From assembly GCA_963712115.1 (NCBI GenBank), contig CAVQGX010000033.1, positions 32,001-96,000 of the forward strand: 64,000 nucleotides of DNA, in the 5' to 3' direction. The stretch is from an uncultured delta proteobacterium. GTDB taxonomy: Bacteria; Desulfobacterota; Syntrophobacteria; BM002. Below, in pieces: positions 1-6,550 of this stretch. The notes beneath the pieces were generated by a model, which was not told where the DNA came from, ran no database searches, and was given only the letters and a program-made list of their open reading frames with translations. Positions within the stretch are counted from its first letter, which is position 1. Each line of letters begins with the position of its first letter. The translations under genes were made by a program, and so were the position numbers.

Positions 1-423
1 AATGGAAAGAATTAAAGGAGTCAGGGTCAGCAGACAGCAGGCAACTGGCAGCTAGCGATTCAGACTAGTTCATTCGTTAAAAGCGTTAGAACCGTTGAAG
101 TCACCTGCCGGCCATCGCGAGCCCCATCGGCATGCGAGGCTTCAGCTGTCAGCCGAGGCAGGACGACCACTCAGGCCGAAGCCGGGCGGGCTGAAACCGT
201 TAAGTCGCTAGACTCTACTTGCGATTCGATGGCTCTATGCTCTTACACGCAAGGACGACGGAGCGAACTGACAATTTCGGCGAAGCCACCTGACGTGTAG
301 TTGAATCAGACAACTAGTTGGTACCTCGCTGCCCCTAATGGTTAGTTGAAACCGCTGCCCGCCTTGTTCTGTGGAGAAAAAGACTAGTCAAAAAGTTTTT
401 TTTGAGCTAGCATTAGTAGCTGA

Positions 424-510
424 CGGTTCTCGGGTTGATGGGAACCCCCCTGGAACTCTCAAGAGGTCCCGGTGATAGACAAAAAGTTCGCGAAATATCA
501 ATTAGAACCG
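424..510 (+). promoter_or_regulatory. Candidate structured 5' leader upstream of greA-like gene
   Basis: Nested pairings CGGTTCT(424-430)/AGAACCG(504-510), GGTTGAT/ATCAATT, GAAC/GTTC and an inner hairpin; ends 28 nt before the ATG. Confidence 0.4.
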
Positions 511-538
511 CGCCCTAAACGGTTGAAAAAATTGGACT

Positions 539-1012
539 ATGGAAAAGCGGCCGATTACAAGGAATGGTTATGAAAGGCTTCGTGCAGAGCTCTCTTTCCT
601 CTGCCGCTTTGTCCGTCCCCAAGTCATAGAAGAACTTTGTAATGCCCGGGCCTACGGCTACAAAGCCAACAACCTGCAGTATTTTGCCGCTCGCGAGCGG
701 CAGGCCTTTTTGGAGTGGAGAATAGACGATCTCCGCCGCAAGATCTCCCTTTCAGAAATCGTGGTAGGACAACAACTAATCTCCTCCATTGCCTGTTTCG
801 GGGCTACAGTAGAGGTGGAGGATATAGATAATGGCGAACGGGCAACTTATCAGCTAGTAGGCCCCTTCGAAGCTGATGCCATGAACGGTCTGATTTCTAT
901 TGACTCCCCCATGGGGCGCACCCTTTTAGGCCGAGGGGTGGGAGATGAAGTCATTGTCTACGCTCCAGGAGGCGTCCGTGCCTACCGCATTCTTTTTGTT
1001 GTCTCCACCTAA
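539..1012 (+). CDS. GreA/GreB-family transcription factor paralog with atypical coiled-coil tip
   Basis: ITRNGYERLRAEL..RPQVIEEL N-terminus and FGATVEV..YQLVGPFEAD..ISIDSPMGRTLLGR C-terminal domain; GDLSENAEY replaced by GYKANNLQY. Confidence 0.85.
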   Translation: MEKRPITRNGYERLRAELSFLCRFVRPQVIEELCNARAYGYKANNLQYFAARERQAFLEWRIDDLRRKISLSEIVVGQQLISSIACFGATVEVEDIDNGERATYQLVGPFEADAMNGLISIDSPMGRTLLGRGVGDEVIVYAPGGVRAYRILFVVST

Positions 1013-1094
1013 GCCCTCCAGCTTCCACCACCTTGCTTCGTTACAGTCTATGTCAAGTTATCGCTAGGAGCTCGCCCCTCATCGACCATCCTGG

Positions 1095-1309
1095 AAATCC
1101 GAAATCCCAAGCACCAAATCCTAAACAAATTCAAATTTTCTAAATTCAAAATTCAAAACAGCATAACCCGTTTTCTTGGACCAAGTCACTGAAGGAATGT
1201 TTTGTTTTGGTATTTGAAAATTGGGATTTCGATATTGTTTCGAAACCGGGAACCCGCCCCGCAGGGGTGGGAGTCCGAAGGACAATTTCGATATTAGATA
1301 TTCGGATTT
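1095..1309. repeat. Intergenic imperfect inverted repeat of AAATCC/AAATTC-type short units; related copies at 14854-14980, 16020-16181, 43335-43490, 55402-55527
   Basis: Left arm gaaatccgaaatcccaagcaccaaatcctaaacaaattcaaa, right arm tttgaaaattgggatttcgatattgtttcg...ttcggattt; same layout recurs at the listed sites. Confidence 0.8.
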
Positions 1310-1365
1310 AAGATGCCGCAACTGGAACCACCAGCAATAAAGATTAACTATCCAATCACCACTCC

Positions 1366-2820
1366 CTAACCTTTGATAACCCCCATAGGTCGTAAGCGCA
1401 CCACTTTCCTGCTGATCCCAGCCCCGTACACAACTTCAACCACCTGACTCACATCCTTGTAAGCCTCGGGGATCTCTTCCCTGACTGTTGCCTTCCCAGC
1501 GCTGCGGATTATAATTCCCTGATCCTCCAATTCCCGGACTATAGCCCTGCCTTGTGACACCTTCATTGCTTGCTTGCGACTCATAACCCTGCCAGCCCCG
1601 TGGCAGGTACTGCCATAGGTCTCTGCCATGGCCTGCTCCGTACCCACAAGTACATAGGAGTAACGTCCCATGTCTCCGGGGATGAGAACTGGCTGGCCAA
1701 CCTCTTTGTAATCATCAGGTATGTCCGGGTGATGGGGCGGAAAGGCTCGGGTGGCACCTTTCCTGTGGACACACACTTTCATTTCCTTGCCCGCCACTTT
1801 ATGGGTTTCGATCTTGGCGATGTTGTGGCAGACGTCATAGATAAGCCTGAGCCCCAGACGGTCGGAGCTCACTTGAAATACCTGCTCGAAGGTTTCTCGC
1901 ACCCAATGGTAGATTATCTGTCGATTAGCAAAAGCGTAGTTGGCGGCACCTGCCATGGCTGCTAGGTACTGCTTCCCTTCCTTTGAGCTCAATGGGGCGC
2001 AACACAGCTGGCGATCCGGTAGCTCGATGCCATATTTCTGGGTGGACTTCATCAGTATCTTGATATAGTCATCGCAAACTTGGTGTCCCAGCCCCCGTGA
2101 GCCGGTGTGTACGATAATCGTCACCTGATCTTTGAACAAGCCCAGGGCTCTGGCCGCATTCTCATCGTAGACTTCATCAACGTAACCAACTTCTACAAAA
2201 TGGTTGCCTGAACCAAGCGTACCTAACTGGGGCCTGCCTCTTTCAAGGGCCCTATTGGAGATCAGGCTGGGGTCCGCACCCTCTATGCAACCCCGCTCCT
2301 CAATAAATTTCAGATCCTCCTCATAGCCGAAACCCTGTTTAACTGCCCATCCGGCACCTTTGGCCAGCACCTTTTCCAGCTCTTTGTGGCTGAGTCTTAG
2401 ATCCTTTCGTTTGGAACCGACGCCTGAGGGAATGTTGCCAAAAAGTCCATCTACTAACTTCCTTATGTGTCCCGTTACTTCCTTGCGCTCCAGACCGGAA
2501 CGCACCAGTCGCACCCCTCAGTTAATGTCGTAGCCTACCCCTCCTGGGGAGACCACTCCTTGGTCCAGAGAAAATGCTGCCACTCCCCCTATGGGAAAGC
2601 CGTAGCCCCAATGGATGTCAGGCATGGCCAGTGAGTTACCCACGATCCCAGGTAGCCAGGCAACGTTGGCCACTTGCAGCAGACTCTTGTCCTTGCGGAT
2701 ATCGGCCATCATGGCCTCATTGGCGTAAACGATGCCGTCGGTGCGCATCTTTCCTTCTTTGACCACCCGCCAACGATATTCGTCGATTTTTTGCACCTTG
2801 ATGGAATCTCCTTTTTCCAC
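1366..2820 (-). CDS. rtcB: RtcB RNA-splicing/repair ligase, 484 aa, with in-frame TGA (2518-2520) at the catalytic Cys; probable selenocysteine
   Basis: ORFs 2518-2847 and 1366-2514 are in one frame, separated only by TGA-GGG. Motifs [56 protein letters not shown] start at 2820 with GGAGG RBS. Confidence 0.93.
2484..2504 (-). promoter_or_regulatory. Bacterial SECIS-like hairpin in rtcB
   Basis: mRNA UGCGUUCC-GGUCU-GGAGCGCA (8-bp stem); loop starts 21 nt after the UGA. Confidence 0.75.
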
Positions 2821-2858
2821 GACAAAACCTCCTATATCCAGTATCAAGAAACCAGAAT

Positions 2859-3287
2859 CTAGATATCAAATATAACCTGGGCTTGCCATCCCTGGTCTCT
2901 TTTAGCGACCTCTAGTTGATGATAGGTCACTGCTTTTATTTCTGTTTTCATCGTATGGATGTTTGGGTCAAAAACATCGCCCCAGGCAGTGGCCTCCAAT
3001 GAAAGGCCATGTATTTTGACCTGGAAGCGGGCAAAAACAAGGTCTTCCGTATCCAGTAGATAAAGGAGTTCCTGCAGCCAGCTCACCAGCAGGGTCTCCA
3101 CATCATCCTCCTCAAGTTTGAATCTCCGCTCCACCGGGCAATCAACTGAATCAACGCTGGTAACCAGCTCGGTAAAGGCTAATCCGGCGGTCTCAAAGAG
3201 ATCTTCAAGAGTCGGGGCCTCCACCCTGACGCCGGCGTCTGCCGTGTGGTCTATGAATTCAAAGGATCCCCTGGTGTGTTCGCTCAT
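2859..3287 (-). CDS. Archease (RtcB activator)
   Basis: [17 protein letters not shown] and C-terminal VIFDI motifs; directly upstream of rtcB. Confidence 0.95.
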
Positions 3288-3369
3288 GGTTTCTCAACTC
3301 ACCTTGCAAAGGATAAGCTTACGGCTTATGTGGTGGTCTCTGTTGCTCCCAAAGCTCATAGGCCATTTT

Positions 3370-3640
3370 AGGTTCATCCGGGATTTGCTTGGATGCCATG
3401 ATGTTCGAGGTAGATGAGGCAGGGGGAATTCCTCGACAAAGATGCATATTCGCATCTATGGGATTTCGGCTTGTGGTCCTTCAAAAGGGCTACCGCCGAC
3501 GCAGACGAGGGGTATTCCAGGCTGCCAGAGCAAAACACCGGTGGCTCAGATGCACTTTGACTCGGACCTCCCCCTGTCCGAGGGTAGCCGCAGTATCAAT
3601 GGCTGAAAGATGACCATGCAAGCAAATCCCGGATGAACCT
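3370..3640. mobile_element. MITE-like element, 271 bp, 22-bp perfect TIR, 6-bp TSD
   Basis: AGGTTCATCCGGGATTTGCTTG ... CAAGCAAATCCCGGATGAACCT, flanked on both sides by CATTTT (3364-3369, 3641-3646). Confidence 0.85.
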
Positions 3641-3650
3641 CATTTTATTT

Positions 3651-3659
3651 AGTATAGCA
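3651..3659 (-). promoter_or_regulatory. Possible extended -10 promoter for archease-rtcB
   Basis: TGCTATACT on the minus strand just outside the MITE. Confidence 0.4.
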
Positions 3660-3923
3660 TGCTCATCGGGAAGGTTACACTTTAGATAGTGTCCATCCGG
3701 AAATCCCCCCTCCACTTTTGCTTTAAGCTCGGTCAAGGTGGCGCTAAACAGACAATAAATGATCTGGACTTGGGCTGCCAGGTCGGATAAAATGTTTGCA
3801 TTTTGTTTTAATGCTTAATCTGAAGAGTTAAAAGCAACATGATTGCGGGTATTGGTAGATTTAATATCGAGGTTGGATCGTAGTCTCAGTGATTTCAAAC
3901 CAAAAAGAACAAAGGAGAGAGTG

Positions 3924-4751
3924 ATGAGAAATCGTTTTTTTATGTTAATTATTCTCTTAGGGATTCTGACGATGACTGTTGGTTTACCGAACTATATCTC
4001 AGCCCAAGGCATAGACTTGGAGGCGGAACATCCCAAAGAGGTCGCAGTCGAAGGTGAGACCGCTACCTCGTTAGGACTTGGTTTCGGGATCGTACCGGAT
4101 TACGAAGGATCAGAGGATTACACAGTGGTCCCCCTACCCTATCTCTCCGTGAAATTTGCCAATAACATGTCTATCCTGTGGGTTGCCAATAAGGCGAGAG
4201 CCAACCTGGTTCCAAGTGGCAACTGGATGGCGGGGCCTATTGTGGAGTATATCAGCTCGAGAGCTGATGTGGACAATAACAAGGTGGACAGGATGAAGAA
4301 TGTCGACGCTTCATTGATGCTCGGCGGCTTTGTTGGTTACAGAATTGATCGATTCAGCTTCACGCTCGAAGCGATGCAAGATGTTGCCGACGGAAATGAG
4401 GGGGTCATTGCAAGGTTGAAGGGGTCATACCACATGCCGATCGACGAAGAGTGGAGTGCGCTTTTCGTCGTGTACACGACATGGGCGGACAACGATTACA
4501 TGGAGGCGTATTTCGGGGTCGATCAAGCAGACTCGGCAAGAAGCGGGTTAAAGACATATGACGCCGACTCGGGGTTCAAGGACGTGGGGTTTGTCGTGCC
4601 GGTGACCTATAGTCCGTTTGAGCATTGGAGCTTCATGGGCGCTCTGGGTTATAAACGGCTTGTTGGGGATGCGGAGGACAGCCCGGTGGTGGATGACGCG
4701 GGTAATGCAAATCAATTCGTGGCGGGCGCGTTTGCTATCTACAAGTTCTAG
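3924..4751 (+). CDS. MipA/OmpV-family outer-membrane protein
   Basis: Signal peptide, PDYEGSEDY, YMEAYFGV, DAEDSPVV motifs, terminal YKF; ATG 3924 with AGGAG RBS. Confidence 0.85.
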   Translation: MRNRFFMLIILLGILTMTVGLPNYISAQGIDLEAEHPKEVAVEGETATSLGLGFGIVPDYEGSEDYTVVPLPYLSVKFANNMSILWVANKARANLVPSGNWMAGPIVEYISSRADVDNNKVDRMKNVDASLMLGGFVGYRIDRFSFTLEAMQDVADGNEGVIARLKGSYHMPIDEEWSALFVVYTTWADNDYMEAYFGVDQADSARSGLKTYDADSGFKDVGFVVPVTYSPFEHWSFMGALGYKRLVGDAEDSPVVDDAGNANQFVAGAFAIYKF

Positions 4752-4919
4752 GGCATATTTCCCGCTTAGTATCTGGCTGCAAGCGGCATACTCATGAATT
4801 TATAACTTTTGTGGCTCGACTGATAATAACCCTCTTTCGATTAGGAGAAAGTACAGGATAAGAGGGTCTTGTGTGTCAAGCATCGAGAACGGCACATTAT
4901 AGGCTTCCCAGCAAGTAGA

Positions 4920-5564
4920 TCAACAGGAGATGTTCTTGATATAGCCTTCAACTACCTGCTTCGGATCAAGCTGCAGTGCTTCAGCGTAGGACTTGAGAAA
5001 GCTTATCAGATAAATCTTAGGCGGAAGATTGACCACATCGTCTTTTTCAATGGCGGCCAAAGCGGTGGGACTGATCTTGGTGGCCTCAAAAATCTCTTCT
5101 AACTCTATGCCCAGTGATTCACGTAAGTTTCTCAGATCTTTTCCGGAAATGTGATCACGCTTCAACATGGTGGTCACAAGATCTCCTGCTTTCTTTTCCT
5201 GAATCTTTTTCTTTATTCTTGCCAAGCTATTGTTATTTGCCCGAGCTTTACTTGTTAGGTAAATGGGTATTGCCTTCTTTTTCTCTCTGTCTGTCAATAT
5301 TTTGTCAGATGCTTCTCCTGTATTTACCAGATTATTGTCGTAAACCTTTCTCTTGTTATCGTCTATCAAAGTCAAAAAGGCATCTTCAATCTTTGACAAT
5401 ATCAGTTTTCGTTCATCTTCCGCAAAGAATGAATAGGTCGCCAACGAATTCTCTTCATAAATGGCCAGAATATGTTTGTACGCCTGCCTGATCTCAAAAG
5501 AAGATGCATTATAGGAAATCCTTAACAGTTCATAATAATTTAAATCTTCAAATTTTTTAATCAT
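4920..5564 (-). CDS. J-domain-like + XRE/RodZ-type HTH protein
   Basis: NYYELLRISYNASSFEIRQAY (no HPD) plus LRNLRESLGIELEEIFEATKISPTALAAIE...YLISFLKSYA. Confidence 0.75.
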   Translation of the reverse strand: MIKKFEDLNYYELLRISYNASSFEIRQAYKHILAIYEENSLATYSFFAEDERKLILSKIEDAFLTLIDDNKRKVYDNNLVNTGEASDKILTDREKKKAIPIYLTSKARANNNSLARIKKKIQEKKAGDLVTTMLKRDHISGKDLRNLRESLGIELEEIFEATKISPTALAAIEKDDVVNLPPKIYLISFLKSYAEALQLDPKQVVEGYIKNISC

Positions 5565-6484
5565 CTTTGAACTCTAACTCGAACAGACTCTTGTTTTTCT
5601 CCTGTGAGATTGCTAACCATGCTTTGCAGGTCAGAAACAGTTTTTGTATAGGGATATTTACTTATGAATATATTTCTGGCAATTATCGATTCATAAACTC
5701 GGTTGTCGTAGCTGATATTACCTAAGAAACCAAAACTAGGATAGAGATGTCTGTTGCATACCTCCACGAGTTGCTCTCCCAGGTTTTCATTAACCTGTCC
5801 ACGAAATTTATTAAGAATTAGTCTAAACTCCAAATTGCTCAGCAGATCTTCAAAGATTCTGCCCTTCTCGGGATCCCTGGCAATGAGAATGCTGATTAAA
5901 TCGAGGGGAGATTTGAGTGAACCTCTTGATAATTTTGCAATTTCCTCTTGGCAAGTGTGCCACATGTTGGCTTCTTTTAATGAAAGTTTCAACTTCCTCA
6001 AATAAACAGACTTCATGAAAATAAAGGTGTTTTCAATCGCTGTCGGTTCCGGAGTGGTTACAAAGAACCCTTCCGGAGCAATCAGAAAAAAGTCGAGGGT
6101 ATTGAAGTTTGTTCCCGGCCCTAAATCCAGAAGAATATAGTCAAAAGGCAAGCTCTTAATAGCATTGATTATCTTGAGTTTTTGAGCATAAAACAGATTG
6201 GCTATCTCCAAAGAGCATCTTGTTGAACTGATAAGGTAGAGGTTGGGTATAGTTGTAGTAAGTGCGACTTCTTCTAATTTGCTGGCGGTCTTGTCTATGT
6301 AACTGTCGAGACCCTTCTCCGGTATTCTCTCGCCTAGAAGGGTGTGAAGGTTGGAGGCGCCCAAATCTAGATCCACAAGTACCACTCTCTTGCCAAGCTT
6401 TGCCAGCAATATACCAAGGCTTGCTGCAATGAAGCTCTTTCCCGATCCCCCTTTTCCTCCGCCAATGGAATATATGCGCCGCAT
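5561..6484 (-). CDS. MinD/FlhG-like P-loop ATPase
   Basis: Deviant Walker A GGKGGSGKS, DLDLGASNL, LLDLGPG, TTPEPTAIEN. Confidence 0.85.
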   Translation of the reverse strand: MRRIYSIGGGKGGSGKSFIAASLGILLAKLGKRVVLVDLDLGASNLHTLLGERIPEKGLDSYIDKTASKLEEVALTTTIPNLYLISSTRCSLEIANLFYAQKLKIINAIKSLPFDYILLDLGPGTNFNTLDFFLIAPEGFFVTTPEPTAIENTFIFMKSVYLRKLKLSLKEANMWHTCQEEIAKLSRGSLKSPLDLISILIARDPEKGRIFEDLLSNLEFRLILNKFRGQVNENLGEQLVEVCNRHLYPSFGFLGNISYDNRVYESIIARNIFISKYPYTKTVSDLQSMVSNLTGEKQESVRVRVQR

Positions 6485-6550
6485 TTTTCTACCTTCGATC
6501 AGTAAACTGAGTTGTTGCCGGTCAAAAGACAGAACACCTTGGTTCAAGTA

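Follow-up and report, generated by a model that had tools for sequence, protein, structure and literature searches.

Can a UGA codon that interrupts the gene of an RNA ligase specify the metal-binding residue of that enzyme? The question is raised by rtcB in a stretch of DNA from an uncultured delta proteobacterium (Syntrophobacteria, BM002; assembly GCA_963712115.1, contig CAVQGX010000033.1, positions 32,001 to 96,000). The whole stretch of 64,000 nucleotides is called the window here, and its own numbering is used. The gene carries one in-frame UGA, at the codon where the RtcB family has its metal-binding cysteine (Cys). It is very probable that this UGA is decoded as selenocysteine (Sec) through SelB, tRNA-Sec and a hairpin behind the codon, that Sec replaces the metal-bridging Cys, and that the ligase works together with archease.

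The rtcB gene and its in-frame UGA

The following features of the gene are needed for the argument.
1366 to 2820, minus strand: rtcB coding sequence, with a GTG start, 484 codons and a TAG stop, and one in-frame UGA at codon 101
2518 to 2520, minus strand: UGA codon 101, predicted to specify Sec, in the column of the metal-binding Cys of GYDINCG
2828 to 2833, minus strand: AGGAGG ribosome-binding site, 7 nt before the GTG start of rtcB, read from the sequence

The first-pass annotation had read the minus strand around codon 101 as GTA GGC TAC GAC ATT AAC TGA GGG GTG CGA CTG, and the sequence bears this reading out. The read-through frame runs from GTG at 2820 to TAG at 1368-1366, and its single interruption is the TGA at 2520-2518. 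Translation of TGA as U gave an RtcB of 484 amino acids with U at codon 101, in the context GVGYDIN-U-GVRL, and the active-site stretches GSGNHF, HTGSRG, HRKGA and CHGAGR were all found in it, just as had been claimed. The standard bacterial code (table 11) splits the gene into two open reading frames (ORFs), 2518-2847 and 1366-2514. TGA is otherwise an ordinary stop codon in the source genome. Among the 33 frames in the window that are open for 250 codons or more, 11 end in TGA, in agreement with the earlier statement that there is no global code change. A scan of the window for in-frame TGA with long flanking frames, made without family searches, gave no convincing further selenoprotein gene.

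The read-through protein is covered by the Pfam RtcB profile from end to end (PF01139; profile positions 1-426 of 426, 601.7 bits with a cut-off of 27), and the gene is the sole RtcB match in the 4.9-Mb source genome. End-to-end alignments were obtained with RtcB of T. thermophilus (2epg, E 9e-191) and P. horikoshii (7lfq, E 3.5e-177), and residue 101 stands opposite the Cys of G(Y/F)DINCG in both. C118 of 7lfq is Cys98 in the numbering of 1uc2 (an offset of 20, from the chain ranges). The structure alignments thus confirmed the identification of U101 with the invariant Cys of GYDIxCG, P. horikoshii Cys98. The Cys of GYDINCG that marks the RtcB family is absent at codon 101, where TGA stands instead of TGC or TGT. 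The remaining active site is complete. In the MAFFT alignment, D98, N206, H207, H238, H332 and H407 are invariant in all 131 Sec and Cys forms; from RtcB structure papers, we take these Asp, Asn and His residues to be those of metal binding and guanylylation. The gene product is predicted to be a full-length RtcB with 3'-phosphate/5'-OH RNA ligase activity, which in this family depends on GTP and Mn2+ and also accepts 2',3'-cyclic phosphate ends. It is like the Cys-type RtcBs (T. thermophilus TTHA1785, 2epg; P. horikoshii 1uc2, 4dwq and 7lfq; human RTCB) in its Pfam family, in the invariant active-site residues and in the archease partner encoded beside the gene. The metal-bridging residue of the Cys type comes from TGC or TGT, whereas the window gene has UGA and a downstream hairpin.

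Relatives were searched for in 41 genomes, the source genome included. In the source family (f1), 17 other genomes gave a match (80-93% amino-acid identity), and the rtcB of every one of them has one TGA; the four members in which none was obtained have a completeness of 61-87%. At the site itself, TGA stands in the same column in 18 of the 18 family loci covering it (L017-L033 and L043, source genome included), and the column is TGC or TGT in all ten loci of other families in the class (L034-L042 and L046). Two further loci, L044 and L045, are without the N-terminal part and were not used. The ratio of non-synonymous to synonymous substitution (dN/dS, Nei-Gojobori) against seven relatives was 0.05-0.20 before the TGA (codons 1-100) and 0.04-0.07 behind it (codons 102-484). 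These low values mean that purifying selection acts on the two parts alike, in a single frame. The TGA lies exactly at the Cys column, with both pieces in one frame, in 126 of the 126 TGA-bearing loci examined.

The sequence of the codon was also followed in contigs of four metagenome runs (two DNA and two RNA-library, from different studies), which cover the rtcB region. Among the differences listed for the four runs (155 others lie beyond these), none is at 2518-2520. Codon 101 is bridged by one DNA contig (1370-2795) and one RNA-library contig (2484-2870); these are Logan assembled contigs and, those from the RNA libraries included, are proof neither of transcription nor of the absence of variants. 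The independent assemblies and contigs keep the TGA, which speaks for its being genuine. Judged by these comparisons, the in-frame TGA is neither an error nor the mark of a pseudogene.

The downstream hairpin and the selenocysteine machinery

A hairpin resembling a selenocysteine insertion sequence (SECIS) had been noticed downstream of the TGA, and it was recovered with stem arms at 2504-2497 and 2491-2484 and the loop GGUCU.
2484 to 2504, minus strand: SECIS-like hairpin with an 8-bp stem, UGCGUUCC / GGAGCGCA, and a GGUCU loop, starting 16 nt after the U of UGA

Single-sequence folding is uninformative alone, and therefore comparative tests on relatives were used. Four hairpin registers were drawn by hand, and 103 of the 114 distinct sequences with TGA fit one of them with at least 85% of the pairs. 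The register of the window gene (alignment A1, 24 distinct sequences) is paired in 97.9% of cells. Changes on both sides were found in five of its eight pairs, and GCGCUCC/GGAGCGC and GAAGACC/GGUCUUC occur in the same columns. None of 500 shuffles matched the observed values, and when the partner was slid by 1-3 columns, 22-54% of cells were paired. The expectation that relatives would share both the TGA column and a conserved hairpin was thus borne out, by the 18 family loci and by a hairpin that partly covaries. In the Nitrospirota class (19 sequences) the hairpin is longer, its loop has 9 nt, and compensatory changes were seen at 5 of the 12 consensus pairs. Pairing reaches 95.8% in the largest class (48 sequences), whose hairpin has a loop of 4 nt and a single bulged base.

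Synonymous positions are conserved inside the hairpin. The majority frequency at third codon positions was 0.91 inside the hairpin vs 0.46 outside in the largest class, and 0.83 vs 0.55 in A1. The median folding energy of the 47 nt behind the codon was –14.25 kcal/mol for the 114 Sec genes and –11.55 kcal/mol for the 40 Cys genes; the Mann-Whitney p value of 1.3e-5 overstates the case because the sequences are related. At the protein level, residues 102-113, which the hairpin encodes, have a sequence particular to each class in the Sec type, unlike the Cys type. The selD gene of the source genome, a classical selenoprotein gene, has a 7-bp hairpin with the same +16 spacing after the U of UGA as rtcB.

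A different layout was observed in several Nitrospirota-type rtcB genes (L062, L070, L079, L080, L099, L102 and L124). Their UGA is predicted to be paired in a small first hairpin (bases 0-18) that precedes the long second one, a two-hairpin arrangement unlike that of the other classes.

The genome was searched for the proteins and the tRNA of Sec insertion. SelA was found at 518 bits. SelB was recognised by its C-terminal winged-helix domain (75 bits) within a frame of 649 codons. SelD was found at 381.8 bits (L003, G000:C22:26789-27709) and itself has one in-frame TGA, at GKGG-U-ACK. For the tRNA, aragorn gave 43 tRNAs in the source genome, none of them tRNA-Sec. The Rfam tRNA-Sec matches all lie below the gathering score and are tRNA-Ser, tRNA-Leu and others, and four 'SeC' candidates from a relaxed aragorn run (ps90, with thousands of false tRNAs) have folds unlike tRNA-Sec. 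The first 18 nt of contig C54 of the source genome, outside the window (C54:1-18), agree letter for letter with the 3' end of tRNA-Sec in the relative G002, CCA included; the flank upstream of selC in G002 maps to another source contig, C45. This tRNA-Sec end at the very edge of a contig suggests that selC of the source genome was most likely split by a contig break. Three of four relatives searched (G002, G007 and G018) have tRNA-Sec at 75 bits, and the fourth, G013 (87% complete), gave no tRNA-Sec above the cut-off. A search for selA, selB, selC and selD had been proposed as a check on Sec insertion: selA, selB and selD are in the genome, and selC is represented only by the 18 nt at the contig edge.

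Distribution, exchange with cysteine and gene neighbourhood

A degenerate pattern, GG(I/V)G(Y/F)D(I/V)x-TGA-G, was searched over one genome per prokaryote species; at least 120 stretches fitted, and 80 loci were returned. Rejected as chance matches were L071 and L104. The other 78 are rtcB genes in which TGA occupies the Cys column; most of them have 378-383 open codons after the TGA or a frame that leaves the locus. By depositor label, 37 are Deltaproteobacteria/Thermodesulfobacteriota, 19 Nitrospirota-type, 14 Acidobacteriota and two Binatia; Eisenbacteria, Gemmatimonadales, Polyangiaceae and 'Pseudomonadota' have one each, and two are unclassified. These labels belong to at least six phyla, those seen once being tentative because nearly all 78 loci come from metagenome bins, whose taxonomic labels may be wrong.

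The source phylum was sampled evenly with 301 genomes, and RtcB was present (E ≤1e-50) in 244 of them. Among the 150 RtcB matches listed (103 more lie beyond), 32 carry one TGA, and these represent at least nine families. Thirty of the TGA rows were fetched, and each has the TGA at the Cys column; of the rows listed without a stop 30 were fetched as well, and each has TGC or TGT there. SelA accompanies the TGA form in every one of the 32 genomes of the sample that carry it, a co-occurrence that carries almost no weight because 279 of the 301 genomes have SelA, which leaves the test nearly powerless. In other phyla, SelA was found in four of five TGA-bearing genomes.

The relation between the Sec and Cys forms was studied with a maximum-likelihood tree from the MAFFT alignment, which held 131 distinct proteins of near full length (91 Sec and 40 Cys). 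The Sec column and 15 hairpin-encoded residues were masked, identical rows were merged, and 31 partial ones were omitted. The tree needs at least 14 Sec/Cys changes, 11 of them forced by well-supported branches, and shuffled labels average 34. The Sec and Cys forms have interchanged repeatedly across lineages. The Sec rows had been gathered by the TGA pattern and are a biased sample, and therefore no ancestral state was inferred. Even within one genus (g49), TGA is found in six sampled genomes and Cys in two.

Traces of the exchange are visible in the genes. Six Cys genes (L206, L210, L211, L217, L219 and L229) retain a complete hairpin after their TGT or TGC codon. Five of them (L206, L211, L217, L219 and L229) were placed within clades otherwise made of Sec forms, and L210 stood unresolved beside two Sec forms; this placement is from an earlier tree on imperfectly aligned rows, some of which differ by an indel, and in the rebuilt tree a Sec form was confirmed as nearest neighbour only for L206, L217 and L229. 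The hairpin is decaying in L203, L207 and L208, which are relatives of hairpin-bearing Cys genes. The hairpins in Cys genes are relics of a recent replacement of Sec by Cys. Six Sec/Cys sister pairs showed no recurrent non-conservative second-site change accompanying the swap. As candidates for second-site adaptation, only conservative scattered changes recur (K21R, R142K and R347K, each in three of the six pairs), and they were rejected.

Public gene calls cut the form short. The 120 best matches among 5.8 billion non-redundant predicted proteins include 81 of 350-399 amino acids whose start lies a little way behind the TGA, usually at codon 106 and thus within the hairpin. The remaining 39 are full-length Cys forms, and U appears in none of the 120. 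The shortened proteins are called 'tRNA-splicing ligase RtcB' where the source names them, and NCBIfam has no selenoprotein-type RtcB model. The earlier suspicion that pipelines would call a pseudogene came close: the gene is taken for a truncated protein of 379-382 amino acids and not for a pseudogene.

Archease is an activation factor of RtcB. The claim of an intact archease gene upstream of rtcB was upheld by the Pfam search. Of the 96 Sec-rtcB loci examined, 70 have archease as the gene directly upstream, and a further 12 have it at another place in the locus. In the window, neither rtcA nor rtcR adjoins rtcB, and archease is its operon partner. The neighbouring genes, identified by Pfam search, are as follows.
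2859 to 3287, minus strand: archease gene (142 amino acids), directly upstream of rtcB (PF01951, 159.9 bits; NCBIfam NF001617)
539 to 1012: GreA
3843 to 4751: MipA-family outer-membrane protein
4920 to 5564: helix-turn-helix protein with a weak DnaJ-domain match
5561 to 6547: ParA/MinD-type ATPase

On the 3' side of rtcB, the stretch 1121-1360 holds a G+C-rich inverted repeat and an ORF of 66 amino acids without a Pfam match. It is probably a terminator region.

Decoding, rival explanations and meaning

The weak point of RtcB is described in a 2026 review of the tRNA ligase complex (PMC13247085). A single conserved cysteine binds both catalytic metal ions, and when it is replaced the metals are lost and with them the activity. 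Oxidising metal ions, reactive oxygen species and even air can oxidise this cysteine, an oxidation that the review calls an 'Achilles heel'. Mn2+ supports the activity in vitro. In the window gene, SelB with Sec-tRNA-Sec would bind the hairpin and insert Sec at codon 101, a step supported by the comparative evidence. The selenolate would take over from cysteine as the bridging ligand of the two metals, as the alignment and the unchanged surroundings suggest. The rest of the active site would be unchanged, and the enzyme would work with the archease encoded just upstream. The benefit is conjectural: the metal site may be better guarded against irreversible inactivation by oxidation, and it may be fully deprotonated at neutral pH with oxidised forms that are readily reduced again, as PMC13188914 states for the Sec ligand of [NiFeSe] hydrogenase and formate dehydrogenase. 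Alternatively, metal preference or affinity may be shifted. That Sec and Cys are exchanged so often is in keeping with a trade-off, a benefit at the metal site against the cost of selenium dependence.

Known systems offer partial parallels. The human RTCB active-site cysteine is protected by PYROXD1 and thioredoxin, according to the accessible parts of PMC12263435, PMC10653391 and PMC13247085. There the weak point is the same, oxidation of the metal-binding cysteine with loss of metal, and animals have added a protecting partner; in Sec-RtcB the residue itself is changed, and we infer that the purpose is shared. Sec is a metal ligand in formate dehydrogenase alpha (Mo/W) and [NiFeSe] hydrogenase (Ni), with protection from irreversible over-oxidation as the benefit (PMC13188914, in the text available). 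As in Sec-RtcB, Sec there stands in place of a Cys metal ligand. However, these are redox enzymes with redox-active metals, whereas RtcB is a nucleotidyl-transfer RNA ligase.

No report of a natural Sec-RtcB was found by text searches of 8.1 million open-access papers and 0.36 million preprints, supplementary tables, subscription journals and database feature tables aside. RtcB is absent from Table 1 of a May 2026 review (PMC13188914), which covers 119 prokaryotic selenoprotein families and subfamilies. Word searches for ligase, splicing, PF01139 and COG1690 in the accessible text of this review, of a 2022 review (PMC9312934) and of the deep-Sep paper (PMC12013277) gave nothing relevant. The nearest earlier item is the P. 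horikoshii RtcB of Haruna et al. (2014), which was engineered with Sec at position 98 via a UAG/EF-Tu system (PMC4150793). This U98 enzyme has Sec at the homologous position, Cys98, but it is artificial, and a natural counterpart is unmentioned in the parts of that paper available. Unlike it, the natural Sec-RtcB has evidently been maintained by selection for long.

Several observations weigh against selenium in RtcB. The case for it is built on sequence comparison. An intact tRNA-Sec was not found in the source assembly (70 contigs, 94.4% complete), and the 18 nt on C54 could be a copy of the tRNA end that an integrated element left behind. The draft genome of Ca. Magnetobacterium casense carries the TGA form, but a search of it gave no SelA. 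The single-sequence folding energy of the 86 nt after the TGA is unexceptional (z = –0.66), no Rfam family fits the hairpin in a search of window positions 1-6000 with E up to 10, and the largest hairpin class (48 sequences) shows zero compensatory changes. The only match of that Rfam search, to a plant microRNA in the stretch 1121-1360, is meaningless (E 4.4). A few TGA-type copies look damaged: the gene of G010 (L043) has a frameshift between residues 184 and 185, and in L092, L119 and L121 the frame closes early, 86-324 codons behind the TGA and away from the locus ends. These four may be decaying genes or assembly errors. Lastly, the engineered U98 enzyme spontaneously cleaved a nearby peptide bond in itself (PMC4150793, available text), so that Sec at the metal-Cys site of RtcB is not automatically benign.

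These points have to be set against what other explanations would require. An ordinary Cys-RtcB would result if UGA were read as cysteine or another standard residue, by a UGA-reading tRNA, by Cys delivered through SelB or by near-cognate read-through. The unassembled tRNA-Sec of the source genome would fit such recoding, and so would the exchange history, as Cys is fully functional at the site, is one base change away and has interchanged with Sec often (14 changes). Even so, this explanation is very improbable. The genome retains selA, selB and a Sec-type selD, and close relatives have a canonical tRNA-Sec. Moreover, TGA with a hairpin would have no advantage over TGC if Cys were inserted, yet it is kept in 114 distinct sequences with conserved synonymous sites. 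We infer that the residue inserted at codon 101 would be Sec rather than Cys.

Marginally less probable again is a pseudogene or split gene, in which translation would end at codon 101 and leave at most a C-terminal fragment of 379-382 amino acids from an internal start. The two ORFs under table 11 look like this, the 81 public proteins that start just after the TGA are called in this manner, and the further damage in a few relatives could be counted on the same side. But the dN/dS of 0.05-0.20 in the 100 codons before the TGA means that selection in frame persists, and the single frame with TGA at the Cys column holds for every one of the 126 loci. A fragment from codon 106 would have neither D98 nor residue 101, and loss of the cysteine abolishes activity (PMC13247085, as available). 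The gene is also the only RtcB of its genome and has kept its archease partner. Least credible of all, and by a good deal, is a sequencing or assembly error for TGC or TGT, in favour of which nothing came to light. The TGA recurs in 18 family genomes, in 78 loci of other species and in 30 genomes of the phylum sample, and the contigs of four separate runs show no alternative letter among the differences listed. Decoding of the rtcB UGA as Sec is the reading we retain.

What the Sec form is for can be suggested only tentatively. Sec-RtcB may be a long-standing and widespread answer to oxidation of the RtcB metal site, in which the selenolate that bridges the two metals would preserve the activity of the ligase, or allow its recovery, under oxidative or metal stress and might also alter which metal is preferred, with Sec and Cys switched as the supply of selenium and the exposure to oxygen vary. 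Gene calls at present give the only RtcB in a shortened form, without two metal ligands, for at least 114 distinct genes from many lineages. This distorts both functional inference and selenoproteome counts. The natural Sec-RtcB is a direct experimental handle on the metal-cysteine weakness of RtcB, and near-identical Sec/Cys enzyme pairs exist in nature (L185/L206 and L200/L229). If the reading is true, Sec-RtcB would be the first RNA-processing selenoenzyme and would hold the first Sec ligand of a non-redox binuclear Mn site. It would bring a non-redox, nucleic-acid-processing enzyme into a selenoprotein list dominated by oxidoreductases.

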